From Escherichia phage ZH5: DNA of 42,949 bases. The translations under genes and the position numbers were made by a program. Position 1 is the first letter of the stretch, and every line of letters begins with the position of its first letter. Of the stretch, positions 3,240 through 42,676 are shown piece after piece. Under the pieces are notes generated by a model that saw only the letters and a list, made by a program, of their open reading frames with translations, had not been told where the DNA came from and ran no database searches. The stretch lies in sequence record OM864357.1, one strand, 5' to 3'.

Positions 3240-3247
3240 GGTTGGGT

Positions 3248-3627: not shown

Positions 3628-3629
3628 AT

Positions 3630-3974: not shown

Positions 3975-4014
3975 GCTTTTGATACATGATGAAATACAAT
4001 TCATTCAGGAGCAA

Positions 4015-6755: not shown

Positions 6756-6757
6756 TT

Positions 6758-7436: not shown

Positions 7437-8227
7437 TGGACCAGCCCTGGCTTAGAGCGTGCAAGCGCCTGGCCGTGGGGCAGAGGGCACGCTTTCGGTG
7501 CTGCGGCAGGGACGCCGCCGGGGTGCTCTACAATAACCCGGATGCCTGGGAATACTATTGCCACCGCTGCAAACAGGTAGGCAAGGAGCGCAAGCAGTAC
7601 CAGCGCATACAGTTACAGGAAGAGCCGAGGGTGCAGCCCTCTGCACCTGCAGATGCAATTTGTATTAGCCAAGCGCCTGCGGAAACGCAGAGTTTTATTT
7701 ACGGATTCCTTGCTTCAAAAGGAATCATGCCTGAAATGGTGGAGGATGCAGAGTGGAGCAACGAGAAACAGCGGATACTATTCCGTGTCGGAAGTGCTGC
7801 TCTGGGCCGTGCAGTGCATGCCCGACAGCAACCGAAGTGGGTAATGTACGGCCAGCCAATAGCTTTCGCTGTCGCGGCACCTGCCGTAGCACCGGCTGTA
7901 GCTGCGGGCGCACCTCTAAAGGTCGTGCTCACCGAGGACTTACTCTCAGCCCGGAAGATACAGCACGCAGTTACGAGCTACAGTGCGTTGAACGTGCAGG
8001 CTATAGCTATGCTGGGTACACGCTTGCCCACGCAGCTAAGGGCCTGGCTGATTCAGAATCGCCCAGAAGTGATTCTGATGCTGGACAATGACCCGGCAGG
8101 GCATGCCGGGGTAGCAGCAGCACGCCGAGCACTGCGCCCGTTCATGCAGTGCCGAGAACACTACTTCGCTGCGGACCCGAAGGACGCAGAAATCAAAGAG
8201 ATACTGGAGGCATTAACTTGGACTTAA
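7436..8227 (+). CDS. DNA primase (zinc-finger plus TOPRIM)
   Basis: N-terminal Cys cluster (CCGRD...CHRC); TOPRIM-like VVLTEDLLSARK and MLDNDPAG motifs; sits immediately upstream of the helicase. Confidence 0.75.
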   Translation: MDQPWLRACKRLAVGQRARFRCCGRDAAGVLYNNPDAWEYYCHRCKQVGKERKQYQRIQLQEEPRVQPSAPADAICISQAPAETQSFIYGFLASKGIMPEMVEDAEWSNEKQRILFRVGSAALGRAVHARQQPKWVMYGQPIAFAVAAPAVAPAVAAGAPLKVVLTEDLLSARKIQHAVTSYSALNVQAIAMLGTRLPTQLRAWLIQNRPEVILMLDNDPAGHAGVAAARRALRPFMQCREHYFAADPKDAEIKEILEALTWT

Positions 8228-9498: not shown

Positions 9499-9501
9499 CT
9501 T

Positions 9502-9532
9502 CCCTAGCGCCTTCCTAGAGGGCGCTATGTAG
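9502..9532 (+). promoter_or_regulatory. Third, diverged copy of the intergenic hairpin element (tagcgcc / loop / ggcgcta, then tgtagg)
   Basis: Shares the right-arm 10-mer GGCGCTATGT with copy 2; lies between helicase and the next gene. Confidence 0.4.
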
Positions 9533-9560
9533 GTACAAAGGCTCGGAGGGCTAAGTGGAA

Positions 9561-9743
9561 ATGAAGATATACATGCTGATGTATAGCTATAGCTGGGACT
9601 ATGAGGATTACGGCGAGGAGGTGTTGGGGTGTTTCAAAGACCGGTACCACGCGGAGCTTGCTGCGTATTGGTTGAATGATAGCCGCAAACGCTACAACGT
9701 TCCGCACGAAGACTTTTACGTAGAGGAGGTGCGTGTAGTATGA
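9561..9743 (+). CDS. Hypothetical protein (60 aa, Tyr/acidic-rich)
   Basis: GGAGGG RBS upstream of ATG 9561 (GTG at 9555 also possible). Confidence 0.5.
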   Translation: MKIYMLMYSYSWDYEDYGEEVLGCFKDRYHAELAAYWLNDSRKRYNVPHEDFYVEEVRVV

Positions 9744-12106
9744 CAACCAGTATAATGCACATCGACTTGGAGACAGAGAACCATGAATATTATGGCTCTA
9801 AAGCAAGCCCATACTGCCCTGACAACTATGTTGTTGAGTCAGCATGGCGTATCGACACGACACAGGCTGACGGTACTACCACTGTTGGCGCGACTCAATC
9901 GGTGCGCTTCAATTCAAGAGCTGATTTCTTGGCGGGAAACAGTGCAGCAGAAGGCTGCCGGTGGTTTCATATCCCCGAAGATTGCTGGCTTATTGTTGCG
10001 CACAACGCAGCCTATGAGATTTCTTGGTTTCTCACGTACCAGCGGCAGCAGTTTGAGGCCTTCCTCAAGCGCGGCGGCAGGGTGTTCTGCACAATGCACG
10101 GGGAATACATCGCCTCGGACTTTCAGAGCATGTATCCGTCACTGGACGAGACGGCTCCTAAGTACGGCGGTACGCACAAAGTAGATGGGGTTAAGATCCT
10201 CTGGGAGCAAGGTGTATTAACCTCCCAGATTGATCCTATGCTATTGCATGACTACCTAGTGAATGGGGATATACCGAACACGGCCCTGTGCTTCTATGGA
10301 CAGTGCGCGACGTTCGCCCAGCGTAATCAGATGCAGTATGTGTGGGAGCGTATGGATGCGTTGCTGGCATGGGCATACTGTGAATGGTTTGGACTGTTCG
10401 TGAATATGCCTATTGCTCGCAAGAACCAAGAGGAGCAGGAGCAGCGTATCCTGGAGATTAAGAAGGAGCTGCAACAATACATCCCGAAGGACTTGCCGGA
10501 GACACTGGATTTCAACTTCGGCTCAGACTTCCATATGTCTGCACTGGTATACGGTGGCCCTATCAAGTATCGCAAGAAAGTACCATACGACCCTCCACAG
10601 TATGTTAAGTGTGATGCGTACCTGGTGCAGGGCACTGACGGAACATTCGTACCTTGTGATAGCACCGACGTATCTGGACCACACAATTATGTAACCTACA
10701 AAGCAGGGAAGAACAAGGGCCTACCAAAAGTGTTCCGAGTGGACACTGACGAGGAGAAACTTAAGTGGGAGGACGACCTCTACTTCTGTCCAGGCCTAGT
10801 TAACATCCAAGAACTCCCAGAGGTGCTCCGAGAGAAATACGCCGAGCGTGGAGAGTTCAGGCAAGCTCGGTGCTTGCAGGATGGGACTCCAATCTACAGC
10901 ACCAGCACAGATGCAATGGAAGCCCTAGCACGTCATGGATTTGAGTTCTGTCGATTGGTGAACGAGCTAGGCGCTCTGGAGAAGGACACAGGAACCTACT
11001 ATCTACGAACGGAGTACAACGAAGATGGGTCAGTTAAAAAGACCTCAGGCATGCTTCAATACGTCATACCTCAGAACCCTGATGGTTCAGGTATTATCCA
11101 CCACCGTCTTAACACCTGTGCCACTGTCACTGGGCGACTGTCAGGTTCTAACCCGAATCTCCAGAATCTACCGCGCGATGGGACGAGCCGGGTTAAGCAG
11201 ATGTTCACCTCTCGTTTCGGAGAGTCTGGTCGCATCACTGAGGTTGACTACTCGGCCCTGGAAGTGGTTATGTCTTGTGTTCACACTGGAGACCTTAAAC
11301 TACTGGGGCTACTGCAGTCCGGCACGGATATGCACTGCTACCGCCTAGCGTTCAAGGAGGGCAAAACCTACGAAGAGATGTATGACCTCTGCCACAACGC
11401 CGATGGGCCGGACTACAAATACTGGAAGCAGCAGCGTACGGACATTAAGCCTCCGAGCTTTGCTGCACAGTACGGGGCTACGGCTAAAGGGATTGCGTTT
11501 GCTACGGGCTGTACAGTGGAGTATGCACAGTCGTTCCTGGATAACGAGGCGAAGCTGTTCCCAGACACCATCGGATTCCGGGCGGTAGTAAAGGAGGAGG
11601 TAGAGCGCACCGGGGCGGCTGGGCGCATTTACCGGGAGCAAGCGGATGATGGCAGCTACCGCATCTACCGCATTGGCACCTGGACCAGCCCAGCTGGTGC
11701 ACGGTACAGCTTCCGCCAGAAGGAGCAGTGGAAGGAAGTAGTCCCTGGCCAGCGCAAACAAAAGGTGATGGACTACAAAGAAACTGAGATGGCTAACTAC
11801 TGGTGTCAGGGTGAGGCATTCTTCCTGATGGCGGTAGCAGCTGGTATGGTTCTGCGTGCAATGCTGGCACGGGATTGGTTCGATAATCAGGTGTGTTTGA
11901 TTACGAACGTGCACGATGCATTGTATCTGGATAGTGCTAATCCGGAAGTAGGCAGAGAGGCGAGCCTGTTGGTCAAGCAGTGTATGGAGGATGCACCTAA
12001 GCGTATCCACCAGCTCTGGCCTAACTACGGCATAATTGGTGAGGTCCCGTTCCCAGCGGAAGCTGAAATGGGTACAAGCATGTACAGTAAGGAGAAAGTA
12101 GAATGA
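9740..12106 (+). CDS. DNA polymerase, family A (T7 gp5-like) with 3'-5' exonuclease domain
   Basis: Pol A motifs DYSALEV (A), KPPSFAAQYG (B) and VHDALY (C); 788 aa; GGAGGTG RBS. Confidence 0.9.
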   Translation: MTTSIMHIDLETENHEYYGSKASPYCPDNYVVESAWRIDTTQADGTTTVGATQSVRFNSRADFLAGNSAAEGCRWFHIPEDCWLIVAHNAAYEISWFLTYQRQQFEAFLKRGGRVFCTMHGEYIASDFQSMYPSLDETAPKYGGTHKVDGVKILWEQGVLTSQIDPMLLHDYLVNGDIPNTALCFYGQCATFAQRNQMQYVWERMDALLAWAYCEWFGLFVNMPIARKNQEEQEQRILEIKKELQQYIPKDLPETLDFNFGSDFHMSALVYGGPIKYRKKVPYDPPQYVKCDAYLVQGTDGTFVPCDSTDVSGPHNYVTYKAGKNKGLPKVFRVDTDEEKLKWEDDLYFCPGLVNIQELPEVLREKYAERGEFRQARCLQDGTPIYSTSTDAMEALARHGFEFCRLVNELGALEKDTGTYYLRTEYNEDGSVKKTSGMLQYVIPQNPDGSGIIHHRLNTCATVTGRLSGSNPNLQNLPRDGTSRVKQMFTSRFGESGRITEVDYSALEVVMSCVHTGDLKLLGLLQSGTDMHCYRLAFKEGKTYEEMYDLCHNADGPDYKYWKQQRTDIKPPSFAAQYGATAKGIAFATGCTVEYAQSFLDNEAKLFPDTIGFRAVVKEEVERTGAAGRIYREQADDGSYRIYRIGTWTSPAGARYSFRQKEQWKEVVPGQRKQKVMDYKETEMANYWCQGEAFFLMAVAAGMVLRAMLARDWFDNQVCLITNVHDALYLDSANPEVGREASLLVKQCMEDAPKRIHQLWPNYGIIGEVPFPAEAEMGTSMYSKEKVE

Positions 12107-19902: not shown

Positions 19903-20346
19903 ATGAAGTTAAAACACACTAGTAAAACACCCAATACTTACTCGCTAAAAGTCCTGCATAATCACGACGATATTAGAAAAGCAGTGGGAGCTCTGCACGA
20001 ACTCGGTCACGGCATCAGTAGGGGCCTTACCACAGAGCAACACTATTGGAGAGTACAAAAAAGTATAATAGGTAAACAGTATATACTAGGAGTCTATGAC
20101 TCCCAGGGCGACTTGGTCGGCGCTGTCAGTTACTACCCAAAAGCTGTAGAGGACTGCCATTACGTAGAGCCTGTGTTGTACACAGACTTCTTCGTATTGA
20201 AACCAGGAAACAGTGAGGCAATGCCTGTAGTTATGAAGGGTCTGCAAGAAATCGCTAAGTGTATGCGAGCTGGGCGCATCGCCATTAGTCGCAATACATC
20301 GGATAATACTTACAAAACAACTTACCATTTAGTGAGGTCAGCATGA
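19903..20346 (+). CDS. Hypothetical protein (147 aa)
   Basis: AGGAG RBS; first gene after RNAP. Confidence 0.6.
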   Translation: MKLKHTSKTPNTYSLKVLHNHDDIRKAVGALHELGHGISRGLTTEQHYWRVQKSIIGKQYILGVYDSQGDLVGAVSYYPKAVEDCHYVEPVLYTDFFVLKPGNSEAMPVVMKGLQEIAKCMRAGRIAISRNTSDNTYKTTYHLVRSA

Positions 20347-25484: not shown

Positions 25485-27863
25485 ATGGCCCAGTCCCTAG
25501 AGGGTACCATTCAGAGTTTGCTCCAGGGCGTGTCCCAGCAGATTCCAAGAGAGCGCCAGCCTGGGCAACTTGGGGCGCAACTGAACATGCTCAGTGACCC
25601 GGTATCCGGAATACGTAGACGACCCCCAGCAGAGATTGTATGGGAGAGTAGTATCGACAATCCGGATTTAGACTCACTGTATACAGAATACGTTGAGCGT
25701 GGTTCCGACGGTAGGCACCTGCTGATTAACACCCGTAACGGTAATTGGTGGTTATTGTCCAAGGACGGTAAATCTATTGTAAACAGCGGGAACGACCCGT
25801 ACTTCGTAACAACGGTAGGTCAAACCTCTATCCAGACTGCGAGCATTGCTGGGTTGACCTACATCCTGAATACGGAGATGGCCCCAAATGCGACCGTGGA
25901 CAACACTGGTCGAATTGACCCGAGCACCACGGGATTCTTCTACATCAAGACGGTGGCCTTTCAGAAGCGTTGGGAGGTTACTGTATCCTGGACAGGTGGT
26001 TCCGTATCAGGTTACTATAATGCCCCCGACTCAAGTAGCGCCGAATCGGCAGAGTGGGTTTCAGCACCTTATGTAGTTAGGGCCTTAATCGATGGGGATC
26101 CTAATGGTCGGGGTATAGGCTCAGCTATTACGGCGGCTGGTGGAAGTATAAGCCGTTTCGAGGGGTATATGTATATATCCGGGCTGCCTAATCTCGTAGT
26201 CAGTACGTCTGCTGGAGACACCTACGCCGTGGCATCTGGGCAGAGTAGGGTTCATCAAGAACAGGATTTACCTGCACAGCTACCAGCACAGGCTCACGGT
26301 ACGATGTGCCAAGTGGGTACAGCTTCAGCTGAGACAGCATGGTATCAGTTCGACTATAATTCCCGCACCTGGTCTGAAGTTGGAGCCTATGGTAGCATCT
26401 CCAAAATTACTAACATGCCCCGGGAACTAGCATCGGATGATAACATCATTGCTCGTGAATGGGAGGGGCGTCTTGCTGGGAACGACGAAAACAATCAGGA
26501 TCCTGGGTTTATTGAGAATGGTTACATTACAGGTATAGCAGCATTCCAGGGCCGTCTGGTGCTGCTTAGTGGTAGTGTAGTGGACATGTCAGCCTCTGGG
26601 CTGTATCAGCGATTCTATCGCTCTACAGTAACCTCTCTGCTGGATACAGACCGTATCAGCATTAGCTCGGCATCTGCTCAGGATTCCGTGTACCGTACAG
26701 CTATACAATTCAACCGAGACTTGGTTCTGTTTGCAAATAGCATGCAGGCTGTAGTGCCTGGGTCAGCAGTGCTTACTCCAACTAACGCCAGTATCAGCAT
26801 CACTAGCACCTACGAATGTGACAGCCGAGTAACGCCAGTAATGGCTGGGCAGACTGTGATTTACCCGAACAAGCGCAACAACAGCTACGCGGGTATTCTG
26901 GAGCTTATCCCATCCCCGTATACTGCCTCACAATATACTACGCAGGATGCGACTGTGCATCTCCCTCGGTATATCCATGGGAGGGTGCTGCAGATGCAAA
27001 ACTCCAGTGTCACTAATATGGCGTTTGTGCGTATGTCCGGACAGCGCAAGAGTCTGCTGGTATATGAGTTCATGTGGGGTGGACAGGATGGTGGTAAGGT
27101 GCAATCAGCCTGGCACCAATGGACGTTCCCGTATAATATTCTGAGCGTGCAGGCACTTGAAGATGAAGTGTTCCTGTACCTGCAAGGGCCTAGTCCCGGT
27201 AATAAACTTCTAATTTTAGCTATGGACCCCCGCGAAGGGTACAACCTCGGCAGCGAGTATACGGATGCGTACTCGGACTTGCAGACGCAAGTTACTGTAA
27301 GCGGAGGGGTACTAGACGTGCCCGCAGTGCTGCGTCCGGTTGGTTGGGCAGATACATACAAAGAGGACTTAATCCTTACGTATCCAGCCAATAGCCCCAT
27401 GGGGCCTACTGAGGTGGGTCTCAAGGATATTGCCGGTACAAACCAGCTCAGCGTAGTGCGAGGTGTTCCTGATGGGCAGTATATCCTGGGTCGCAGGTAC
27501 AATAGCTCATTCACTCTGACTACCCCAGTACTCCGGGATCAGAATGATAAGCTAGTTGGTAGTGGGCACGTGCGCTTACTGCGTCTGGATGTAGCAGTAC
27601 GTAACTCCGGGCACTTTGATGTGCATGTAACGGATACGCCCCGGGATGTTGATTGGAGTGGAGAACTCACAGGTATCTTGATGAACTCCAAGGAGCTGAC
27701 GCTGGGGCAGACCTTGCGTATGGACTTGGCTACCATCACAGTACCGTGCCGTACTAACGCGGACACTACCGAAATCACTTTGTATACAAAAGGCTCCCAG
27801 GAGCTTAACGTGCTGGATATCTCTTATATCCTGCGCTACAACCAACGCAGACGGAGGATTTAA
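25485..27863 (+). CDS. Tail tubular protein B (T7 gp12-like)
   Basis: 792 aa; GGAGGG RBS; follows tail tube A. Confidence 0.75.
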   Translation: MAQSLEGTIQSLLQGVSQQIPRERQPGQLGAQLNMLSDPVSGIRRRPPAEIVWESSIDNPDLDSLYTEYVERGSDGRHLLINTRNGNWWLLSKDGKSIVNSGNDPYFVTTVGQTSIQTASIAGLTYILNTEMAPNATVDNTGRIDPSTTGFFYIKTVAFQKRWEVTVSWTGGSVSGYYNAPDSSSAESAEWVSAPYVVRALIDGDPNGRGIGSAITAAGGSISRFEGYMYISGLPNLVVSTSAGDTYAVASGQSRVHQEQDLPAQLPAQAHGTMCQVGTASAETAWYQFDYNSRTWSEVGAYGSISKITNMPRELASDDNIIAREWEGRLAGNDENNQDPGFIENGYITGIAAFQGRLVLLSGSVVDMSASGLYQRFYRSTVTSLLDTDRISISSASAQDSVYRTAIQFNRDLVLFANSMQAVVPGSAVLTPTNASISITSTYECDSRVTPVMAGQTVIYPNKRNNSYAGILELIPSPYTASQYTTQDATVHLPRYIHGRVLQMQNSSVTNMAFVRMSGQRKSLLVYEFMWGGQDGGKVQSAWHQWTFPYNILSVQALEDEVFLYLQGPSPGNKLLILAMDPREGYNLGSEYTDAYSDLQTQVTVSGGVLDVPAVLRPVGWADTYKEDLILTYPANSPMGPTEVGLKDIAGTNQLSVVRGVPDGQYILGRRYNSSFTLTTPVLRDQNDKLVGSGHVRLLRLDVAVRNSGHFDVHVTDTPRDVDWSGELTGILMNSKELTLGQTLRMDLATITVPCRTNADTTEITLYTKGSQELNVLDISYILRYNQRRRRI

Positions 27864-27864
27864 T

Positions 27865-28446
27865 ATGTGGTGGGCCGTCGCTGCCTTAGCGGGCACTAAG
27901 CTGCTTGGTGCTGCTGCACAGATTGAGGTTGCCAAAGCACGTAACAAAGCAGTAATTCAGCAGACAGCGAAGCAGTTAAACGATATCGCACTGCAACGGG
28001 CTCAGTCCAGGGATCGGACTGAGGTTGCCCTGTTCAACGTTCAACAGCAGAAGCTGCAAGCACAGAGTCAGGTAGGCCTACAAGCTGCTGCGTCCGGTAC
28101 TATGGGGGCGTCTGTTAAGGATGCCGTAGCAACCGTGAATACAGTAGCAGATCGTCAGGTATCTGGAATCAAGTCCCAGCAGGCCACTCAGGAAGAGGGC
28201 TACCGAATGATGGTGGATAAGGCCGTGGATAGCGGATTAGCCAATATGGACCTGGAGAGCGGATACGACAAGATGTTTAATGCTGCCTTGGGCTTTGGTG
28301 GGCAACTGCTCGGGCAATACATAGGGAATGAACTATCCAAGAGCACTCCCGATAGTACCGACACCACCCCGGAGCCTGCAGCAGATAATTCGTTCTTGTA
28401 TGACCTATGGGGCAGCAAGGGTAATAGCAAAGTACACACCTGGTAA
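27865..28446 (+). CDS. Internal virion protein A (ejection/core protein)
   Basis: 193 aa; position between tail tube B and the larger internal virion proteins. Confidence 0.6.
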   Translation: MWWAVAALAGTKLLGAAAQIEVAKARNKAVIQQTAKQLNDIALQRAQSRDRTEVALFNVQQQKLQAQSQVGLQAAASGTMGASVKDAVATVNTVADRQVSGIKSQQATQEEGYRMMVDKAVDSGLANMDLESGYDKMFNAALGFGGQLLGQYIGNELSKSTPDSTDTTPEPAADNSFLYDLWGSKGNSKVHTW

Positions 28447-28461
28447 ACTAAGGGGAAGTAA

Positions 28462-31146
28462 ATGCCTGTAATTCAACCCAACCGACAGGGTCTAAATATC
28501 GGCGGCGTGCAATTGCAGGCCAACGAGGTTAACTTGCCCTCTACAGTCGGGGATGTAGTAGTAGACACGTCCAAAGCAAACCGCCTTGCAGCACTCTCTG
28601 GCTTCGTCCAGGACTTCGGTATAGGGTTTGATGCAGCAGTAAAAGAAAATGCAGCAGCAGCCACTGTGCGAGGTGCTATGGATGCCCAGGGTGCAGTAGA
28701 TGCAATGGCCTCTAAAGATGAGGCGGTACAGAAGCAGAATATATTTGTACGAGAAGCCTACCAGGATGGTTATGTATCTGCTGCGGCCTACGATTCTCTA
28801 GCTAAGTGGCGTACGGATAGTATTACTCGAGCTAAGAAGGCAGCTGAGGCTGGACTGACTGATGAGGAATTCCACCAGCAGGAGCAAGAGTATGTTCAAG
28901 CTATGTCTGACAAGCTCGGTATGTATCTTCCGGATATGTCCAAACAGTCCGCTACGGCGGTACTGCAACAGCTCCGTGCAACCAGCTTAGCTAACTACAC
29001 GGCCTTCCAGAAAGGTCGCGCAGAGTTTGCAGTAGCACAAGCAGACCGTGCGCTGGACCGTGGGCTCAGCTCCTCCGTTGATGAGTTCTATCAGCGCCTG
29101 GATGCTGGGCAGGGTGCTGCCGCGCAGATGTCAATTAAGACAGGGTTGGATAGTATCCTGGCAGCTGAGCACCTGGATAAGTCCAAGAAGTTGGACCGAG
29201 CCAAGCAGTATCTGGTCAGTGTAGCGCAGCAGACCCAGGACCCTCTAATCATCAACCAGTTGCAGGAAATGGCAACTAAAGAGCTTGGTGTTAACTCTGT
29301 AGACGTTAATGCTGCATTGTATCAGGAATTTAAGCGTGCTGGGACTCAGATTGAGACTCAGGCTCGCTTTGAAATCTCAGATGCAATTCAGTCTCTGGAG
29401 GGGCAGTCCCCAGAAGAGCAGGAGCAGACGATGCAGCGTATCCGCAACCGCGTGATTGAGCTATCTGCTACGGATGTACTAAGCCCCGGCACCAGTATGG
29501 AGTTCTGGAACAAGGCTCAGACTATCAGGGAGAAGACTGCCGATACACAGGCTTTACGTAGTGCCATCACAGGAAACCTTCCTACATCCACCTTAGCTGG
29601 TATGTTTAAAGGGGATTTGGATAAGGCCCGGTCACAGGTACTCAAAAACTTCCCAGACACTCCAGAGGGGAACTTGCAGCTACTGGCTTATGGTAGCAAT
29701 AGTAAAGATGCGTGGGCCATCAATGAAGCACACAAGCGCATGTCCTCGGATATGGCGCGCACCCTCACTACACTGGACCAGTTAGGTGAGGATGGGCAGG
29801 TGTCCAAGGAGAATGTCAATAGCATCAACCTGTGGGCCCAAGCATATAGTACCAGTACCGACTTAGGTAAGATGGCTCTGCTGTCTGAAGTCCCATCTGA
29901 GTGGCAGGGGGTGGTTCAGAAGGCCGTTGCACAGAACCCTAATAACGCTAGTAACACCATTCTGGACGACCTGCGTCGCCAGGCCCGTAACAAGGCTAGC
30001 GGGCGCTACAGCAACATCAGTAGCAACCCCACAGACAAAATGGTGGACCCGAGTCACACTGCTAATTGGTTCAGCTTCTTCGGCACAGCTGACGCGCAGC
30101 GCCAGGAAGCGCGCGCCGCTATGGAGGAAGAGTATCGGTACGTATATAATCACAACCCAGAGGCGTTAGTTGGTAAGGATCCTGATGATATCAACACGAT
30201 GCTCAAAGGTAACATCCAAGCCCGTAAGCTGGAGTTAGATATCTCTGGGGCTCCTCGGCACGTGTACCTGCCAGCTGGGACTTCTATTCAATCCCTAATG
30301 GGGGATTATCGAGGAGACCAGGAGCAGTTCAAGTCGTCTCTGCAGCAGCAGATTCAGAGCCAGGTAAACGCCTTAACTGACCCTAGCAACCTTGAACGAG
30401 TAGTAGTGCAAGCTGCCACAGCAGGTAACTCAGCGCAGAACATGACTGTCACCGTATTCGACAAGAAGGGAACCTTCCAGACTATGTCGGTGAATCTGCG
30501 TGACGTTCAAACCGCTGCGCAAGATGCATATGACAAAGCTCTGGCCGGTGAGATAAAGATTGGCAGTGAGCAAGTAGGTGTCCGTCCAGTTACCTTCTAC
30601 GATCATGACAACGGCAGGGTTGTAAGCACGCAGGTCAATGGACGTAACGGGGCAGGTGTAGAGCCATCGCTATTTAGTGAGATTCTCGCCAACACCATGC
30701 AGTTTGAGGGATTCCGAGAGGGTAAAGGCAACGGTAGTGTAGGCTTCGGTCTGCACAACAACTCCGGTATGCCTGTTCCGAAGAAGGTCACTATCGATGA
30801 TGGTATTAGTATTCTGAAATCCTCCCTGGAGCAGCAGTACATCCCGAACGTGAACAGACAGTTGCGCGGACAGGGCTTGAATGCCTCTGCGGATGCTATG
30901 AAGGTTATGGTTGATTTGAACTACCACGGCGGTAACGGAAGTTCTGGCCCAGTAGCTGAGGCTGTGGCACAAGTACGTAAGGCATCCAAGACCCCTGTAG
31001 GGGCGTACCAGTACCCTGTATCCGAGGCTCAGGGTAAGGCATGGCAAGCGCTACGGAATACTCCAGCTTACAAGCAGGCACAGCCTAAGCGTAAGAAATA
31101 CCTGGAGCAAGGACTGCGAAACTGGATGTTCGAGGTGACACACTAA
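28462..31146 (+). CDS. Internal virion protein B (ejection/core protein)
   Basis: 894 aa, Ala/Gln-rich; AAGGGGAAG RBS. Confidence 0.65.
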   Translation: MPVIQPNRQGLNIGGVQLQANEVNLPSTVGDVVVDTSKANRLAALSGFVQDFGIGFDAAVKENAAAATVRGAMDAQGAVDAMASKDEAVQKQNIFVREAYQDGYVSAAAYDSLAKWRTDSITRAKKAAEAGLTDEEFHQQEQEYVQAMSDKLGMYLPDMSKQSATAVLQQLRATSLANYTAFQKGRAEFAVAQADRALDRGLSSSVDEFYQRLDAGQGAAAQMSIKTGLDSILAAEHLDKSKKLDRAKQYLVSVAQQTQDPLIINQLQEMATKELGVNSVDVNAALYQEFKRAGTQIETQARFEISDAIQSLEGQSPEEQEQTMQRIRNRVIELSATDVLSPGTSMEFWNKAQTIREKTADTQALRSAITGNLPTSTLAGMFKGDLDKARSQVLKNFPDTPEGNLQLLAYGSNSKDAWAINEAHKRMSSDMARTLTTLDQLGEDGQVSKENVNSINLWAQAYSTSTDLGKMALLSEVPSEWQGVVQKAVAQNPNNASNTILDDLRRQARNKASGRYSNISSNPTDKMVDPSHTANWFSFFGTADAQRQEARAAMEEEYRYVYNHNPEALVGKDPDDINTMLKGNIQARKLELDISGAPRHVYLPAGTSIQSLMGDYRGDQEQFKSSLQQQIQSQVNALTDPSNLERVVVQAATAGNSAQNMTVTVFDKKGTFQTMSVNLRDVQTAAQDAYDKALAGEIKIGSEQVGVRPVTFYDHDNGRVVSTQVNGRNGAGVEPSLFSEILANTMQFEGFREGKGNGSVGFGLHNNSGMPVPKKVTIDDGISILKSSLEQQYIPNVNRQLRGQGLNASADAMKVMVDLNYHGGNGSSGPVAEAVAQVRKASKTPVGAYQYPVSEAQGKAWQALRNTPAYKQAQPKRKKYLEQGLRNWMFEVTH

Positions 31147-31195: not shown

Positions 31196-34100
31196 ATGGC
31201 TCAGTTTCTGAACCGAGAACCGAATCCACAGGAAAAGGATTCTGCTAAGGGCGCAACACTTAAACCTGCGCCTGCGCGTATAGATTGGAACGATGCGGGT
31301 GACGACGGCTTAAACGCACTGGAGCGTGCCTCCTTACTAGCACAAGCCAAGACACCTGCTACTACAGCTGCAGAGAGCTTTGCTTCTGGTATGGGCAACA
31401 GTATCATCGCCGCAGCTATCCGTAAAGCCTCTTCCCCAGCATTCGTCCCAGAGCAGGGGTTTGATGCTAAGAAACAACTAAGCACCGACTCCCGGGTTAA
31501 GTTGTATACTCCCAACCAGGAAGAGATTGATTACTTACATGGAGCAGTGTCTCTAGAGGACTATAACTACCGTATACAGCAGATGCTTGATCAGCGTCAT
31601 CGCGATCGCTTAATGGCTGACAACACAATAGCTGGGTTCGCTGGTGCCATAGCAGGTGACTCCCCATTTCCCCTAGCTCCGATGTCTGCGGCAGGTATCG
31701 CTGGTCGGGCTGGCTTAGCAGTACGCACTGCTATCCGCGCAGCGGATGTAGGTACGGCTGTTTATGCACAGGACCAACTGGGTCAGTCTGCGGCAGTTAC
31801 TGCTCTTGTAGCAGGTGTAGCTGGTCTAGACCAACTCTGGGATATCCGTAGAGCAGTGCGCGCGTCTACAGTAGCTGCCTCAACTACAAGAACTGCTGAG
31901 ACCGCACCTAATACTGCTACGGCAACTTCCCGCACTGCTCCGGAAGAAGTAGCAACAAGTCGCAATGGGGTAGATTCCCCTGCTGGCCCGTTTAATGCGC
32001 AAGCTGATAGTGCCGCGGCTGCTAAAACCACTGACGGTTTACCAGAAGGTTTAAGCTTGAACGTGCTGGATGATGTAGAGCACCACGCTTACTCTGGTGT
32101 ACGTGTACCCGGTATAGAGGTAGAAGTAAATCGCGGAGATAAGTTGGTTGGTGTTGTGCAGGCTTATCGTGTAGGTGATGATTTACAAGTAGCACATGCC
32201 TGGGTTGATAAATCCCTGCGTGGCAAGGGAGTAGGCGCGAGCATGTACAAAGCACTAGTTAAGCGCGCTACTGATGCAGGGTATGGCAACTTGTTGTCTG
32301 ATAGCTCAGTAACTGCGTCTGCTCAGCAGATGTGGCGCAAACTTGGTGCTACAAAAACCAAAGATTTTAAAGAACTAACGGACGGTATTGAAGGGCAGCG
32401 TTATGCGGTCTCTGCGGATGAAAAGTCCCCACTCTTTACTTTAGACTTGAAACGTCCTGTGTTTGACCCAGATGCGCCTACAACTCGTACAGCGAGGGAT
32501 GTTAATGTTACAGGAGTAGGAGAGGGGGAAGAAATCCTCACCAAAGCACTGGATGAACCGATAAAAGTCCTTAGAAACAACACTACTACTGTTAACATTA
32601 AAGCGCAGGACGTAGTTCGATTCCTAAAGACCTCTGAGCATTTATCTAAGGGTCAGAAGGCTATCCTGGACACCTTGGGCGATGCAGTACAGGACATTGA
32701 TTTTAAGTTGGTGGCAGGCTCTTCTAACCGTAGCCACTACAGCTTTCCACTGGTATCAAGAACTGATAGAGGTTTTATATCTTTACGTGCCCCTAAGAAA
32801 GCTAATGGAAGTACTTGGACAACTGTAGGTGACGCCCTACGCGCCATGGACGCCGATACTAGTCGAGTAGCAGTGCACGAGCTGATTCACGCTGCCACTA
32901 CTAGGGCCCTTAAGCGGAATCCTGAAATTGCTAGTAAGCTGGAAGAGGTGCGCGCTGCAATAGCAGCTGATTCAACCCTCAGTGATAAGCTTAAGTACTA
33001 CGCAAGCGATGTGCACGAGATGTTAGCTGGACTAGGTGATAGCCCTGAGTGGGTGGAATATCTCTCCAGAACTCAATCCCCTACCGGTAAGAGTATGCTC
33101 CGCCAGATTGGTGAGTATATCATGAATGCCCTTGGGATCCGTACTAAAGGCTCCGCTTTGGAGGACGTACTAGATGCGTATGAAGATGCTGTCAAGTGGA
33201 CTGCAAAAGACTACGCAGAACAAGTTCAGAGCTTCCGCAGCGAATCCTTCCAGGACCTAGCGGGTACATCGGTTAAGAATGAGGCCCTGAAAGCTCAGAC
33301 TATGATGGACACGGCCAAGCGTAAGTTAGCCACTATGTTCTCCCTGTATGATAACATCGCAGAGGGTAGTGAGGACCTGGCACGCTTATTAGTATCTGAT
33401 GCTACTGCTGTAGGCGGTCGTAAACCGTCTGTGGTGGACTTCAAGCGTAACCTTACGTTGGAGATGGATGCTAGTGCCAGTGTAGTTGAGGACGCTATAC
33501 TTGGTGCCCTCAAGGCCAAAGGTGTAGGTTTCATAGACCGCTTCTTCCACCGTAGCAACTTCCGAGCAGCTCGTGCTGACTTAGAAGGTCGCTTGGGCCG
33601 TTACCTGGACTCTGCGTACAGTGCTGAGGTTAATGGACGCCCTGTACCTCTGCCGGACTCTGACTTGGTTCCGCTAGTAGAGGCATACCGCAACTCCGGC
33701 TGGGCCAGTAAGTGGCACGATCACATGACTGCTGCCGGACTGGTGGATGACGGTACTCTGATTAAATCGGACTATTACTTCCCTCGCCAGTACAGTTACG
33801 ATAAGATGCGCCAAGGTATTGCAAACGGTCGCTCCCTGGATAATTATCGGGATCTGTTCCGTCAGGCACTGCGTGATGTGTATCCATCTATGGAGCCTGA
33901 GGTTGTTCAGCGCGTCGCTAAGGAAATGGTTGATGGTATCTACAACGGACGCTCCTCGGCCTCTGGTCCTATGTGGAAGCAACTCATCAATGGTATGGGT
34001 AATGATGAAGTAGTTATGGCCATGCGTAATGCTGGCGTAGACGAGAGTGCAATCCAGAGTTTCTTGGCAGGTAATGTCCGAGAATCTGGCGCTACCTCGC

Positions 34101-35458
34101 CTGCTAAGAACCTCCGTCAACGTACCCGCTTCAACATGGACAAAGAGTACATCGTAGATGGTCAGGTTATGCGCATGCAGGATCTGATGGATACTGACGT
34201 AGCCAAGGTTATGCATGGTTATACTAACCGAATGTCAGGTCGTGTAGGTATGGCTTACGCCGGAGTCTCTGACCTAAAAACACTAGAGACGATGATTAAT
34301 GAGTCCAAACACGCTCTGGCCGACCCTGGGAAGTGGGAGAAGACCGTTAATGACACCATCGACTTTATCTTAGGTGGGGCACCAGCCGACGCCGGGCAGA
34401 TGCCGGACCTGCTCCGTGCAGCCGGTAACATGGCCAACGCTACCATGCTTAAGAACTCTGGGTTGTACCAGCTTACTGACACCGCTCTAGCGCTGAAAGA
34501 GTTTGGTATGTCCCGAGTACTTCGCAGTATGCGTGAGCAGCCTTGGTTTAAAGAAGGTTCTGTAGCTATTCGCACTCCGGATATGGCTAGTCGTCTGGAT
34601 GCAATCCTACGTGGTAGTATCCAGAAGGAGATGCGCTTCCGCTGGTTGAATACGTACGCCGACGATAACCTGGACTTGACCCGTCAAGCCTCTTGGTTCA
34701 ACGTCACCCAGAACGTTGGGCAGGCTGCACGTCACGTCAACGGTATGAGCATGGTGCATCGGCTGCAAGTTAACCTGAACTCAGGTATTGTAGCGGATGA
34801 GCTCCAGCAGATGTTCAAGGGCGACGCTGAGGCGTTTAAGCGTCTGGAACGTTTCGGTCTTACTCGTGAAATCGCTGACCGGGCTATTGCTGCTAACAAA
34901 GCTAATCCTGGTGCTATGTTCCAGCCGGACCTGCAAATGCAAGTTGAGGTGGTAGGGACGCGTATGATGGACTATTTGGTGCAGCAAGTACGTACCGGTG
35001 AGACCTCGCACTTCGCCCAGTTCAACCCTATCGGCAAAGTAATTGTCGGCTATCAGAGCTTCGCCCTGGCTGCCACCAACAAGATTCTGCGCCGCGAGTT
35101 GAATGATGCCGGGTGGATTGGGGTTGCACACATCATGGCATACCAGTTCCCATTGATGCTTCTAGCAACTATGGCGAAGCACGGTATGGACGGCAAAGAG
35201 GCCGATACTCAGAAGCTTATCGCTGAGTCGGTTATGGGTATGAGTGCCATCGGTGGTATCTCGCTTCTGCAGGATATCTTCACTGGGGACTCTCCGCGTC
35301 ATTCTCTGGCGTCTATGGGCTACGTCACCGGGCTGTTGGGTGCGGTGCAAGCCCTGGCTACTGGGGATATGGATATCCAGACCTTCACTAAGCAGGTCCC
35401 GTTAATCCAGGAATTTGCACCTACGCGGGCTATCATCAATAACTTCGGAGACGATTAA
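31196..35458 (+). CDS. Internal virion protein C (largest ejection/core protein) with an embedded GNAT-like signature
   Basis: 1420 aa; AGGAG RBS; N-terminal Ala-rich low-complexity region; LRGKGVGASMYKAL (GNAT motif A-like) at about 32211-32243; HELIH at 32876-32890. Confidence 0.75.
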   Translation: MAQFLNREPNPQEKDSAKGATLKPAPARIDWNDAGDDGLNALERASLLAQAKTPATTAAESFASGMGNSIIAAAIRKASSPAFVPEQGFDAKKQLSTDSRVKLYTPNQEEIDYLHGAVSLEDYNYRIQQMLDQRHRDRLMADNTIAGFAGAIAGDSPFPLAPMSAAGIAGRAGLAVRTAIRAADVGTAVYAQDQLGQSAAVTALVAGVAGLDQLWDIRRAVRASTVAASTTRTAETAPNTATATSRTAPEEVATSRNGVDSPAGPFNAQADSAAAAKTTDGLPEGLSLNVLDDVEHHAYSGVRVPGIEVEVNRGDKLVGVVQAYRVGDDLQVAHAWVDKSLRGKGVGASMYKALVKRATDAGYGNLLSDSSVTASAQQMWRKLGATKTKDFKELTDGIEGQRYAVSADEKSPLFTLDLKRPVFDPDAPTTRTARDVNVTGVGEGEEILTKALDEPIKVLRNNTTTVNIKAQDVVRFLKTSEHLSKGQKAILDTLGDAVQDIDFKLVAGSSNRSHYSFPLVSRTDRGFISLRAPKKANGSTWTTVGDALRAMDADTSRVAVHELIHAATTRALKRNPEIASKLEEVRAAIAADSTLSDKLKYYASDVHEMLAGLGDSPEWVEYLSRTQSPTGKSMLRQIGEYIMNALGIRTKGSALEDVLDAYEDAVKWTAKDYAEQVQSFRSESFQDLAGTSVKNEALKAQTMMDTAKRKLATMFSLYDNIAEGSEDLARLLVSDATAVGGRKPSVVDFKRNLTLEMDASASVVEDAILGALKAKGVGFIDRFFHRSNFRAARADLEGRLGRYLDSAYSAEVNGRPVPLPDSDLVPLVEAYRNSGWASKWHDHMTAAGLVDDGTLIKSDYYFPRQYSYDKMRQGIANGRSLDNYRDLFRQALRDVYPSMEPEVVQRVAKEMVDGIYNGRSSASGPMWKQLINGMGNDEVVMAMRNAGVDESAIQSFLAGNVRESGATSPAKNLRQRTRFNMDKEYIVDGQVMRMQDLMDTDVAKVMHGYTNRMSGRVGMAYAGVSDLKTLETMINESKHALADPGKWEKTVNDTIDFILGGAPADAGQMPDLLRAAGNMANATMLKNSGLYQLTDTALALKEFGMSRVLRSMREQPWFKEGSVAIRTPDMASRLDAILRGSIQKEMRFRWLNTYADDNLDLTRQASWFNVTQNVGQAARHVNGMSMVHRLQVNLNSGIVADELQQMFKGDAEAFKRLERFGLTREIADRAIAANKANPGAMFQPDLQMQVEVVGTRMMDYLVQQVRTGETSHFAQFNPIGKVIVGYQSFALAATNKILRRELNDAGWIGVAHIMAYQFPLMLLATMAKHGMDGKEADTQKLIAESVMGMSAIGGISLLQDIFTGDSPRHSLASMGYVTGLLGAVQALATGDMDIQTFTKQVPLIQEFAPTRAIINNFGDD

Positions 35459-35459
35459 T

Positions 35460-35948
35460 ATGGCTGAGGAGAATAGGGCCACAGTGGTCTATGATGAGAC
35501 CAGCCCCAGTGGGTTGCGGTACGTAGCCAGCAGGTTTAAGTCTAGAGTAGGAGCCCCTGCGGGGGCCTTAAACTCCAAGGGCTATTATGACCTACGCTCT
35601 GCGCCTACTGGGTGTAACTCTAGGATGGCGCACGCTGTTTTGTGGGAACTACACAACGGGGGCATTCCAGAGGGGTTTGAAGTTGACCACATTGATGGCA
35701 ATCCAAGTAACAACCGAATAGAGAATCTACGTTTGGCTACCCGTTCTTTGCAGGCCTTTAACCGGGGAACACGAACCGACAAGCGCTCAGGTCTACCTAA
35801 AGGCGTATTCGTTAACGGTACAGGATTTATGGGGCGGACGTCTCGGGATGGTGTTCGTATATCTAAGACTTTTAGCACTGTAGAGGAAGCTGCCGCCTGG
35901 GTTGCCGAGGCCCGTAAAGTCTCGGCTGGGGCCTGGGTGCGTAGCTAA
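35460..35948 (+). CDS. HNH homing endonuclease with AP2-like domain (second copy)
   Basis: VDHIDGNPSNNRIENLRLAT HNH motif; ATG 35460 directly after the upstream TAA. Track ORF begins at 35415 inside the previous gene. Confidence 0.75.
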   Translation: MAEENRATVVYDETSPSGLRYVASRFKSRVGAPAGALNSKGYYDLRSAPTGCNSRMAHAVLWELHNGGIPEGFEVDHIDGNPSNNRIENLRLATRSLQAFNRGTRTDKRSGLPKGVFVNGTGFMGRTSRDGVRISKTFSTVEEAAAWVAEARKVSAGAWVRS

Positions 35949-40112: not shown

Positions 40113-40356
40113 AGTAGGAGACGTAGTTGGGGCAGACCTCGCTACCCGGGCAGGTGCAGCAGTTACTGGCGCTACAGTCTCAGGAGGCTGGTTGGCAGAG
40201 CTAATGAGTTGGAACTGGAGTGTTATCAGCTTCATCACTGCGACGGTATGTGCAGTGCTAACCCTGGCGTGGAATGCGTATTACAAACGGCGTACGTACA
40301 AGCTCCTAGAAGAGCATGCACGTAAGGGGGCTATTAAATATGAGTTTAAGGACTAG
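40105..40356 (+). CDS. Holin, pinholin-like (two TM segments, first Gly/Ala-rich)
   Basis: 83 aa; TM1 ATRAGAAVTGATVSGGWLAEL is weakly hydrophobic, TM2 SVISFITATVCAVLTLAW is strongly hydrophobic; basic C-terminus; adjacent to a SAR endolysin. Confidence 0.6.
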   Translation: MIKVGDVVGADLATRAGAAVTGATVSGGWLAELMSWNWSVISFITATVCAVLTLAWNAYYKRRTYKLLEEHARKGAIKYEFKD

Positions 40357-40939
40357 GGTTATAGCTGCACTCGCCGGGGCTACTATGCTTGGCGGGGCTA
40401 TTACTGAGGTAGTCCAGCACAATGAAGGTTTGAGCCTTACAGCCTACAAAGACAGTGCCGGTATCCCTACGATCTGCTACGGAGAGACAAAGGGTGTCAA
40501 AATGGGTCAGAGAGCCACTCTGAGCGACTGTCAGAAGCAACTAATAGAATCAGCAGGGGAACATGCTAAGGCTCTTGACGGGCTTCCTATGCAGCTCTCT
40601 GACGTGGCTCTGATAGGGTCTGTAGACTTCATCTATAATGTAGGCGTAGCCGGCTTCAATGGCAGCGCCGTGAAACGGCACCTCAAAAACCTTGATTACG
40701 CAGCGGCTGGAAAGGCTGTGCTGGACTGGCGTTACATTAGCAAGTATCAGCAGAAGTCCCCAGGCACCGGTTGGGTGTACAAGGGTGGCAACCGCTGGAT
40801 CTTCGACTGCTCCCAGTATATTAACGGGCAGCGCAATAAGGTGTGCTGGGGCCTATGGGAGCGCCGTGTGTGGGAAGCCAAAGCTATTGGCAATGAATAT
40901 GAGTCTGTGCAGGTAGCTGTTGCTGCTACGCCTAAATGA
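40340..40939 (+). CDS. Endolysin, GH24 lysozyme with N-terminal signal-anchor-release (SAR) domain
   Basis: EGLSLTAYKDSAGIPTICYGET matches the phage lysozyme catalytic motif (E...D...T); N-terminal VIAALAGATMLGGAI is a SAR-like segment; AAGGGGG RBS. Confidence 0.8.
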   Translation: MSLRTRVIAALAGATMLGGAITEVVQHNEGLSLTAYKDSAGIPTICYGETKGVKMGQRATLSDCQKQLIESAGEHAKALDGLPMQLSDVALIGSVDFIYNVGVAGFNGSAVKRHLKNLDYAAAGKAVLDWRYISKYQQKSPGTGWVYKGGNRWIFDCSQYINGQRNKVCWGLWERRVWEAKAIGNEYESVQVAVAATPK

Positions 40940-40948
40940 GGAATAGTA

Positions 40949-42676
40949 ATGAATCTAATTTCGTTAGTAGATGTAAGTTCAAGGCAGGTACAGAACTCCT
41001 TACTTACAGTAAATACAGTTGCCGAGTTGCGTAATATCCAAGCTAAGGCAGGTCAACGCGTTCGTTGGTTAGGATATTTTAACCTCAACGATGGTGGTGG
41101 TAATACAGGATATGTTACCGCAGGTCCACTTACTGCGGATAACGGGAGTGTGTTCCTGCTTAATAATGGAATGTACGTACGTGCAGTGTTTGAGTCTAAA
41201 GTAGACCCGCTTCAGTTCGGCGTCTCAGGAAGTAATACCTCTGCGGACAATAAGATACGGTTTGACCGTATGGTTAGTTATTGTCTCAATACAAAGACCG
41301 CTATTGAATATTCTCGTAGTATGGACTACCAGTGTGACCCGGTGCGCATTAGCGGTGCCTCTGCGGACTTCTTTAGTATTACTGCTCCGCGAGCAAGTGT
41401 AACTCACCGCTGTCCTAGCGCATCAGACCACGCATTTATTCTGCAAGGTGCAGCTCCCGTAGCCCCAGCATCATACGATACGTTCCAGCATTGTACTGTA
41501 TCAGGGCTCAGGATTGTAAGTTCATTCAGCTGCATTTATACCCGCTATACAGAGAACTTGGTCATTGAGAAGTGCTTGTTCAGCGGCGGCTCATTAGGTG
41601 CAGCTACTGGCGTGGGGATAACTATGTCATACAATGGCCCACTGGAAACCGATATTAAGCCGAGAATAAGGAACTGTATATTTTCGTACTGCAAACACGC
41701 GATACTCGGACAAACAGCAGTAGCAGAGACGGACCGAGGCCGCGTAGCGGATGGGGTATTTGAAGACCTTGTGGCATTAAATTGCGGCGGCACTACCGGA
41801 GACTTTGTGTACCACTTACCTTACATGGATGGGGCCATACTGAACAAAGTAGAGGCATACCAGGATTCTTTTAACACTGTGGCCGCTAATGGTATTCTGC
41901 TACAAAAACCTACGTTAGTTAATCTGACAAACTGCAACATGTTTGGATTAGGTGGGTACGGGATACAACTACTCAGTCCTCGTGGTGTCTGCATAGATAG
42001 CACCAACACAATACAAGGGTGTGGTAAACAAGGAAACCGCACGGCACTTGTTGTGTCCAGCCTGTCGTCAAGTATTACCACTCAGAATGTGAAATTAAGC
42101 CCTAGAATTCGTGACTGTTACGGTAGTGCTGTGCAGATGCAAGGTGTCTCTAACATAGACCTTTCAGGTTTAGAGGAGTACGGGAACTGCCGAGGTACCT
42201 CTAGTGCCGCTGGATGGTCCTTCCTGAACTGTCAGGGCGTGCGCCTGCATAATGTACGCGCAGACAGCGCAGGTACTGCCTTTCTGAACGTGGACGGGGG
42301 AAGTGTTGAACTGTTTAATCCCACGTTCCTACAGTACACCTCTCAGATATTACTGGCTAACTCGGCGACTGTCAGGGTACTTCCTGCTGAGCGTATTCTG
42401 CAAGTAAACGCAGCTACCTCTCCTGGCGGTATTGTAGATGAAGTACAGTATGACGCCAGTACAGGCTCAGCTATCGTCACCTTACCCAGCGCCAGTAGCT
42501 TCCCCGGTAAGGTTATTCGTATCATTAAGACTGATTCAACTTCTAATGGCATAGGTATCTTCCCGGCAGCGGGTCAATCTATTAATGGGGCAACCTCCTA
42601 CAGCCTTACTGCACAGTATTCGTTCGTGCAGCTGCGCAGTACAGGGTCTAACTGGTTAGTTATAGGTAAGTCCTGA
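40949..42676 (+). CDS. Tailspike protein, candidate polysaccharide depolymerase; lacks a gp17-like N-terminal anchor
   Basis: 575 aa, last gene before the right terminal repeat; Gly/Ser/Thr/Asn-rich periodic sequence consistent with a beta-helix; no T7 gp17-like N-terminus. Confidence 0.6.
   Translation: MNLISLVDVSSRQVQNSLLTVNTVAELRNIQAKAGQRVRWLGYFNLNDGGGNTGYVTAGPLTADNGSVFLLNNGMYVRAVFESKVDPLQFGVSGSNTSADNKIRFDRMVSYCLNTKTAIEYSRSMDYQCDPVRISGASADFFSITAPRASVTHRCPSASDHAFILQGAAPVAPASYDTFQHCTVSGLRIVSSFSCIYTRYTENLVIEKCLFSGGSLGAATGVGITMSYNGPLETDIKPRIRNCIFSYCKHAILGQTAVAETDRGRVADGVFEDLVALNCGGTTGDFVYHLPYMDGAILNKVEAYQDSFNTVAANGILLQKPTLVNLTNCNMFGLGGYGIQLLSPRGVCIDSTNTIQGCGKQGNRTALVVSSLSSSITTQNVKLSPRIRDCYGSAVQMQGVSNIDLSGLEEYGNCRGTSSAAGWSFLNCQGVRLHNVRADSAGTAFLNVDGGSVELFNPTFLQYTSQILLANSATVRVLPAERILQVNAATSPGGIVDEVQYDASTGSAIVTLPSASSFPGKVIRIIKTDSTSNGIGIFPAAGQSINGATSYSLTAQYSFVQLRSTGSNWLVIGKS

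Follow-up and report, generated by a model that had tools for sequence, protein, structure and literature searches.

A mini-GNAT domain carried as an optional cassette in the gp16-type ejection protein of Escherichia phage ZH5

Podovirus ejection proteins are usually seen as channel-forming structural parts that carry, at most, a cell-wall hydrolase. Does the ejectosome of such a phage also deliver an enzyme that modifies proteins? The question is raised by Escherichia phage ZH5 (OM864357.1, about 43 kb), a phiKMV/KP34-like podovirus of the Autographiviridae (Slopekvirinae, Drulisvirus-like). We refer to the whole stretch of its DNA that was analysed, 42,949 nucleotides, as the window. A gene at 31196..35458 (+) encodes a 1420-aa internal virion protein in which an original prediction, made from the letters of the sequence, had recognized the signature of a GNAT acetyltransferase. 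Our results confirm that this protein contains a true GNAT-fold domain, at aa 283-420 (32042..32455, +). If the domain acts as an enzyme on ejection, a T7-like phage could modify host proteins post-translationally before transcribing its own genes, which would be relevant to the choice and engineering of therapeutic phages of Klebsiella, E. coli and Shigella.

The identification rests on Pfam, on an AlphaFold2 model, on Foldseek comparisons with the PDB and BFVD, and on a family profile compared with the PDB. On the whole protein, Acetyltransf_1 (PF00583) scores 30.4 bits, against a curated cut-off of 20.7 (E 5.3e-07, aa 311-384), and on the isolated segment 33-35 bits. Acetyltransf_10 (PF13673) also passes, with 26.4 bits for a cut-off of 23.6, and Acetyltransf_7 is above its own cut-off on the isolated segment. 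A profile built from 26 sequences of the family matches the PDB entries 1y9k (E 2.6e-08) and 5isv, E. coli RimI (E 8.9e-08). The single-sequence AlphaFold2 model was mediocre (pLDDT 63.5), and we used in its place a model based on a 30-sequence alignment (aa 279-425), which reached a pLDDT of 87.4 and a pTM of 0.84. Foldseek found 313 PDB chains at E<=1e-3, and the best 50 listed of these 313 are all GNATs. The leading matches are E. coli RimI (5isv), the H. pylori protein acetyltransferase HP0935, AtaT and GCN5/PCAF, with a probability of 1.00 to RimI, HP0935, GCN5 and PCAF and TM values of 0.5-0.65. A further 97 viral GNAT models match in BFVD at E<=1e-3, and these structural neighbours include MuF-, ART-PolyVal- and RadC-fused viral proteins.

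Both the search against the GNAT clan and the structure prediction, which had been proposed as checks, thus came out in favour of the original prediction. The three strings on which it was built, IEVEVNRGDKLVGVVQAYRV (aa 307-326), LRGKGVGASMYKALVKRA (aa 341-358) and SAQQMWRKLG (aa 375-384), all lie in the reading frame at 31196-35458 (+). The span that it had assigned to the signature, 32060-32360 (aa 289-389), falls inside the domain, but the full domain is larger and extends over nt 32042-32455. A chance likeness of motifs in an unfolded linker might have been suspected, because the segment is missing from most orthologues and the 65 residues ahead of it are of low complexity. The Pfam score above the curated cut-off, the confident fold, the 313 structural matches and the strong purifying selection described below rule it out, and we consider its probability negligible.

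The protein that carries the domain is of the gp16 type (internal virion protein D, IVP-D), as judged from its open reading frame (ORF) and translation, its match to phrog_342 and its match to Shigella phage SFN6B. Its aa 19-1419 align with positions 180-1225 of the 1235 of phrog_342 (E 4.3e-236). This PHROG is labelled 'internal virion protein with endolysin domain', and T7 gp16 bears the same PHROG-derived product name. Among annotated relatives, it is closest to the 'putative internal core protein' of SFN6B (91% nt identity). Upstream lie the genes of a nozzle protein (25485-27863, +; Pfam Phage_nozzle, E 2.7e-160), a gp14-like protein (27865-28446, +; Pfam T7_gp14, E 4.8e-28) and a gp15-like protein of 894 aa (28462-31146, +), a trio (25485..31146) that matches phrog_457, phrog_4295 and, for the gp15-like protein, phrog_2083. 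The order nozzle, gp14-like, gp15-like, gp16-like, tail fibre, terminase is a T7-type synteny, into which an HNH gene is placed after the gp16-like one. The description of the gene product as the largest internal virion (ejection) protein is therefore upheld by both the phrog_342 match and the order of the nozzle, gp14-, gp15- and gp16-like genes. By homology, and from the T7 data (PMC8954989), the protein would be packaged in the core and ejected into the envelope or cytoplasm.

The lytic transglycosylase (LT) domain of gp16-type proteins is phage-specific and not universal (PMC8954989). The 1420-aa protein has no SLT or lysozyme match in Pfam, and positions 1-179 of phrog_342 are left unmatched. 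The gp15-like protein, whose phrog_2083 label mentions a 'lysozyme motif', gives no muralytic match in Pfam either. Drulisvirus orthologues are labelled 'internal virion protein with endolysin domain' or 'peptidoglycan lytic exotransglycosylase', and no such domain is detectable in the window protein. These labels look inherited from LT-bearing members of the family, such as those of T7 and of Xylella phage Cota.

What kind of GNAT is this? In the model, the topology is b1-b2-b3-b4-a3-b5-a4-b6-b7, with b1 running directly into b2 and no a1-a2 arm, and the Pfam matches begin at about position 38 of the 116 of the profile. The fold agrees with the GNAT pattern of a mixed beta-sheet that splays between b4 and b5, with a3 and a4 on its flanks. 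Because the arm is missing, we call the domain a mini-GNAT, like PF14542/YjdJ. The absence of a1-a2 is typical of mini-GNATs and does not exclude membership of the GNAT superfamily. Like the PF14542 proteins (Acetyltransf_CG; YjdJ 5i0c, S. aureus 1r57/2h5m), the domain is a short core without N-terminal helices. Unlike them, it has an SD...A...W signature and a tyrosine, Y351, that are specific to its own family, and its PF14542 match stays under the curated cut-off (22-27 versus 30 bits).

The acetyl-CoA pyrophosphate loop, motif A, reads R342-G-K-G345-V-G347 (32219..32236, +), matches Q/R-x-x-G-x-G/A and is placed between strand b4 and helix a3. It is intact, as had been claimed. In 99 instances of the domain from this family, conservation is 98% for G345, 96% for G/A347, 94% for R/Q/K342 and 92% for A376. 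The family-specific Y351 (32246..32248, +), in helix a3, is near-invariant (88% of the instances, and all sequences of alignments A2 and A3); RimI has Leu85 there, in the register of the profile-RimI alignment. At the end of strand b5 lie S368-D369 (32297..32302, +), found in 71% and 65% of the instances (the latter position is Gly in 24%), with S and D each present in at least 90% of the 26-30 best single-domain members. In the HMMER alignment of the family profile to 5isv, D369 falls on Glu103 of RimI, the established general base of that enzyme (Vetting et al. 2008, cited in PMC5512222), whose general acid is Tyr115. The same alignment places W380 of helix a4 (32333..32335, +) on Tyr115, at a position that is W in 58%, H in 19% and Y in 17% of the 99 instances. 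Hence, the string that had been read as motif B-like is present and lies in helix a4, but it has a Trp where RimI has the catalytic Tyr. To judge by these residues, the CoA-binding loop is strongly kept and an acidic candidate for catalysis is present, while the classical Tyr is absent.

These features bring in a first rival explanation, namely that the GNAT fold is a pseudoenzyme, used for binding or oligomerization without acetyl transfer, with partners such as CoA or a nucleotide, a host protein, DNA at the cytoplasmic hub, or the neighbours in the gp16 ring. The T7 protein IVP-A (gp13) has a reported acetyltransferase-like fold and no known activity (PMC4819975), the general-acid Tyr is replaced by Trp in the window protein, and the a1-a2 arm is absent. 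In addition, the family includes tandem arrays of two to five copies in which D369 is often Gly (24% of the 99 instances), and therefore a scaffold-like use is suggested. Yet, the conservation of motif A at 94-98% across the 99 domains is hard to explain without CoA binding. The acidic residue at the general-base position of RimI is present here and in most single-domain members, and the Tyr is also absent from many active GNATs. Finally, mini-GNATs that lack a1-a2 (PF14542 type; 1r57/2h5m) are among the profile matches, and the S. aureus protein among them was reportedly solved in complex with acetyl-CoA (entry 2h5m). We consider the pseudoenzyme unlikely, if far from absurd.

A second rival concerns the substrate. 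A GNAT of the toxin or small-molecule type might acetylate aminoacyl-tRNA, as do AtaT and TacT, or polyamines or some other metabolite, and thereby arrest host translation or metabolism at entry. AtaT is seventh in the Foldseek ranking (E 8.9e-06), and diamine, spermidine and EctA-type enzymes were also matched. However, such matches are generic to the superfamily (11-20% identity), and it is protein N-acetyltransferases (RimI, HP0935) that match best in sequence and structure. The family does not conserve the Tyr that is catalytic in AtaT-type toxins, and a few tethered copies are unsuited to draining an abundant metabolite pool. The NCBIfam equivalogs also count against this rival, to which we give little credence: they produced only sub-threshold matches with scores far under their cut-offs, and therefore no substrate can be assigned from them. 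One of these scores, 16.5 for TIGR01575 (rimI) against a cut-off of 86.4, means that the domain is not a RimI orthologue. It resembles RimI (5isv, 2cnm; the N-alpha-acetyltransferase of ribosomal protein S18) in being closest to it in structure, and second-closest in profile matches after 1y9k, with motif A and the acidic base position aligned. It differs from it by an identity of only 14-17%, by the missing a1-a2 arm and by the Trp in place of Tyr115.

How did a GNAT come to lie in an ejection protein? Protein and DNA alignments and the lengths of protein clusters show that it belongs to a cassette of about 188 codons (approx. 31880..32451, +), which is missing from the common 1232-aa allele of the gene (Hope, KP34, Minorna and others). 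The cassette brings together the linker and the GNAT domain (aa ~217-420). Its 5' part is the linker, aa 217-282 (31844..32041, +), set apart by its composition and by the ratio of nonsynonymous to synonymous substitution rates (dN/dS). It is an Ala/Thr/Ser/Pro-rich stretch of low complexity, poorly conserved in DNA and variable in length among carriers (it is shorter in P0066). Relative to the protein of Klebsiella phage Hope (1232 aa), the cassette is a clean insertion of about 188 aa between ...LDQLWD and P(V/M)FDPDAPTTRTARD, and outside it the two are about 92% identical in nucleotides and 90% in amino acids. Ahead of it, the conserved N-terminal region (aa 1-216; 31196..31843, +) is common to the 1232-aa orthologues and closes in a Gly/Ala-rich hydrophobic stretch, aa ~143-217.

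The cassette is rare. Among 249 matching phage records, the only carriers of the segment are SFN6B, myPSH1235 and KpV48. Among the best 120 protein clusters, four are GNAT carriers, with 1405-1428 aa (from precomputed PF00583 matches), and the other 116 have about 1231-1246 aa, mostly 1232, without the cassette. The comparison of orthologues that had been suggested as a further check gave a clear result: the GNAT segment is conserved wherever the cassette is carried. Its absence from most orthologues is due to the whole domain being an optional cassette, and not to its being a linker.

The GNAT core is under purifying selection. Its dN/dS (Nei-Gojobori) is 0.02-0.11, similar to the 0.04-0.10 found over the rest of the protein, and the linker has values of 0.16-0.54. 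The carriers are not each other's nearest relatives in the flanks, because Hope and Minorna are as near to the window there as SFN6B, and the Klebsiella carriers myPSH1235 and KpV48 are only 79% identical. Relative to SFN6B, dS falls from 0.96 in codons 1-216 to 0.13 in the cassette and is 0.36 over the rest of the gene; relative to the Klebsiella carriers, it is 0.68 in the cassette and 0.91-1.45 in the flanks. The lower dS inside the cassette than in its flanks indicates that the cassette was exchanged between lineages, and the heterogeneous values relative to SFN6B imply several recombination breakpoints within one ejection-protein gene. These substitution patterns point to the GNAT core as a functional, selected module that has been moved among Drulisvirus lineages by recombination.

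Domains of the same family recur far beyond these phages. The family was uncovered by an exhaustive HMMER search of 1.8 billion representative proteins, which yielded 63 proteins at E<=1e-3, none of them above 41% identity. A word-index homologue search found nothing with the GNAT segment alone and only three proteins with the family profile. Almost all of 30 family members match PF00583 (29/30), and 27 of the 30 also match PF14542. The domain occurs at the same alignment columns in gp16-like proteins that are only 17-21% identical overall, with P0017 (1446 aa, phrog_342), P0008 and P0034 (1322 aa, phrog_6651 'internal virion protein') as carriers; P0017 and P0008 come from short metagenomic contigs, and the contig of P0034 also holds a T7-type small terminase. 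Among isolated phages, Xylella phage Cota (Autographiviridae, LR778216) has it, in these same columns, at aa ~573-677 of a 1490-aa internal virion protein (5285-9757). A DarB-like polyvalent protein (P0010) and a protein that contains LPD38 (P0014) carry it as well. Other members are arrays of two to five domains placed head to tail (P0001, P0003, P0006, P0011, P0013 and others), with five copies in the 901 aa of P0001, and P0006 combines an N-terminal minimal CRISPR polymerase (mCpol) domain with three mini-GNAT copies. The jumbo phage Tunturi_5 of Tunturiibacter (PP885688, 308 kb) has the domain in a 1362-aa 'MutT/NUDIX hydrolase' gene (3217-7305). That gene is placed in a structural module, between head-tail connector and minor tail genes, and a second match to the domain lies at 229483-229635. 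The association of NUDIX and GNAT in a virion protein of polyvalent type recalls the NUDIX-GNAT-InPase associations of Iyer et al. (PMC5512222).

The family also has solo genes (P0004, P0015, P0184), and one of them bears on a third rival, according to which the domain works in the producer cell. It would acetylate core or capsid proteins of the phage, or itself, during assembly (for example, so that lysines facing the packaged DNA are neutralized or N-termini are marked), and injection would be incidental. Acetyl-CoA is freely available during assembly, and the solo gene P0004 is part of an internal-virion-protein module, being the second gene downstream of a 1653-aa internal virion protein. 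Acetyltransferase-like genes that need not be akin to the mini-GNAT family recur in such modules (phiRIO-1-like phages, T7 gp13, gp63 of the Bcep22-like phage JC1), and the products of the phiRIO-1-like phages and T7 gp13 were termed non-structural by Hardies et al. (PMC4819975). In the window, however, the domain shares one polypeptide chain with a protein that would itself be packaged and ejected. Most Drulisviruses assemble their virions without it, and their core proteins are 82-95% identical in other respects. Moreover, the family is fused to typical injected effectors (DarB-like, LPD38), and MuF- and ART-linked GNATs are among the structural neighbours. We therefore find action in the producer cell improbable.

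If the domain is ejected with its carrier, in which compartment does it arrive? In T7 gp16, the LT (aa 1-156) and a 'molecular tape' (157-228) are periplasmic, two putative transmembrane regions follow, and gp16-C (411-1118) forms a cytoplasmic hub (PMC8954989). Kyte-Doolittle hydrophobicity peaks at 328-348 and 387-413 in T7 gp16, and the window protein has a sole N-terminal peak at 199-217, directly before the cassette. A direct alignment of the window protein to T7 gp16 gave nothing significant with BLASTP and a probability of 15% with hhalign. We thus used the Cota orthologue as a bridge. The Cota protein covers the whole phrog_342 profile, beginning at position 5, and its aa 11-194 match LT PHROGs. 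Two blocks match T7 gp16, aa 335-465 on 305-421 (E 0.003) and aa 976-1428 on 742-1206 (E 9e-7), and the Cota GNAT (573-677) is located between them. The hydrophobic stretch of the window protein aligns with that of Cota (from about aa 369 in the aligned block), inside Cota aa 335-465. This collinearity would place the GNAT just past the membrane-associated region, at the start of the part that is modelled as cytoplasmic. By analogy with T7, the domain thus probably ends on the cytoplasmic side, where acetyl-CoA is available. The Cota protein itself combines an LT (aa 11-194) and a mini-GNAT, two different enzymes in one ejection protein, presumably destined for two compartments.

These elements, drawn from sequence, model and analogy, lead to the reading that we favour and to which we give an even chance: an accessory, RimI-like protein acetyltransferase rides on the ejectosome and acts near the site of DNA entry before phage genes are expressed, in counter-defence or early takeover. 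Through a flexible linker of about 65 aa, the domain would be attached directly behind the hydrophobic N-terminal region and in front of the large C-terminal part. The protein, present in a few copies in the capsid core, would leave the capsid ahead of, or with, the DNA and enter the inner membrane. The small domain might then refold on the cytoplasmic side, take host acetyl-CoA through its intact motif A and acetylate a host protein close to where the DNA comes in, at a time when phage genes are not yet expressed. The outcome would be counter-defence or an early takeover of the host, in parallel to T4 Alt and to the GNAT domains of 'polyvalent' proteins. The action at the first moment of infection that the original prediction had envisaged would fit this scheme.

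Several observations weigh against this reading. The usual general-acid Tyr of helix a4 is a Trp in the window protein, and the model lacks the a1-a2 arm, which in canonical GNATs is part of the acceptor site. For a plain enzyme, the tandem arrangement of up to five copies seen in many members of the family is unusual. The argument on topology is made by analogy, as the window protein does not align reliably to T7 gp16, and a periplasmic location would leave the domain without acetyl-CoA. Each virion would deliver only a handful of copies, and to pass the tail channel the domain would have to unfold and then fold again. Finally, most sister phages thrive without the cassette. These natural cassette-less alleles (for example, those of Hope and Minorna, about 92% identical in nucleotides outside the cassette) also make the hypothesis cheap to test, and offer a naturally controlled system to ask if a podovirus ejectosome delivers a protein-modifying enzyme.

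The favoured reading may be taken one step further, to a proposal that we hold as tentative and doubtful. The cytoplasm-facing start of the gp16-type subunit could be a conserved docking site for swappable cargo enzymes. The mini-GNAT, small enough to refold beyond the tail channel, would then be a dedicated effector of the 'first seconds'. Fixed where the DNA channel opens, it would acetylate a host factor of defence or DNA entry, such as a restriction enzyme, an enzyme of the RecBCD type or the RNA polymerase by which the genome is drawn in, with a strain-specific gain in host range.

Precedents exist for the principle and for the type of domain. Enzymes packaged in the capsid, delivered with the DNA and acting before phage expression include the ADP-ribosyltransferase Alt of T4, DarB of P1 and the vRNAP of N4 (PMC5512222, PMC7552054); the domain described here differs from them in its putative chemistry, acetylation, and in its fusion to an ejectosome subunit that forms a channel. 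GNATs of the RimI-like clade were described in packaged polyvalent proteins that are predicted to be codelivered with DNA and that acquired them repeatedly from solo versions (Iyer et al. 2017, PMC5512222). As in those proteins, a RimI-like GNAT is embedded here in a very large protein of a virion module, and the same mini-GNAT family occurs in LPD38 and DarB-like proteins and as solo genes. Here, however, the carrier is a gp16-type ejectosome subunit of a T7-like podovirus, and the GNAT is the single recognizable effector domain in 1420 aa, with no neighbouring ART or peptidase. There is no mention of gp16 or internal virion proteins in Iyer et al. 2017 (PMC5512222). The window protein shares with T7 gp16 the phrog_342 family, the gene order and the general plan of an ejection protein with an enzyme domain on board. 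The enzyme of T7 gp16 is an LT, whereas the putative one in the window protein is of GNAT type and lies after, not before, the hydrophobic region, so that it is probably cytoplasmic rather than periplasmic. Thus, T7 gp16 has an LT, the window protein has none that we could detect, and that of Cota has both LT and GNAT. The GenBank record of SFN6B already notes 'cd04301: N-Acyltransferase superfamily' on its core protein, and our literature searches brought up no paper that deals with such a domain in internal core proteins or proteins of the gp16 type. What we describe is therefore a known principle and a known type of domain in a carrier, the T7-type ejectosome subunit, where the literature that we found does not discuss it.

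Rac (LUZ19 gp28), a GNAT of the related phiKMV-like Autographiviridae, triggers cleavage of the alpha subunit of the host RNA polymerase and shuts the polymerase off (PMC7552054). Like Rac, which depends on its acetyl-CoA pocket, the domain in the window would be a GNAT used by a podovirus for host takeover; unlike it, Rac is free-standing, expressed after infection and outside the virion proteins. A link between the two was rejected (hhalign probability 1.2%, and only E 0.036 with phrog_3986). A Pfam scan of 10 window ORFs, with the two directly downstream of the RNA polymerase gene among them, revealed no free-standing GNAT. Immediately after the RNA polymerase gene, where LUZ19 has Rac, comes an ORF of 147 aa and unknown function (19903-20346, +; phrog_5167), which shows neither a Pfam match nor a significant similarity to Rac (BLASTP E 1.2). 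Acetyltransferase-like genes, including T7 gp13, were also described in internal-virion-protein modules (Hardies et al. 2016, PMC4819975). A link to T7 gp13 (phrog_308) was rejected at an hhalign probability of 0.7%, in a test that is weak because the template was a single sequence, and there is no gp13-like gene between the nozzle and gp14-like genes of the window.

Other genes of the window deserve a brief mention. An ORF for a homing-type HNH endonuclease (35415-35948, +; Pfam HNH_3 E 2e-20, phrog_99) begins within the gp16-like gene and shares its last 44 nt. It is found at the same place in SFN6B, but in Hope and KpV48 the tail fibre gene comes directly next, and no gene is annotated there in myPSH1235. 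The ORF is thus a presence/absence polymorphism that adjoins the mosaic ejection gene. The product of the last large ORF, of 575 aa (40949-42676, +), has a right-handed beta-helix (Pfam Beta_helix E 2e-09), as is typical of tailspikes that depolymerize capsule or O-antigen, and ahead of this ORF lies a phage lysozyme gene (40316-40939, +; Pfam Phage_lysozyme E 9e-21).

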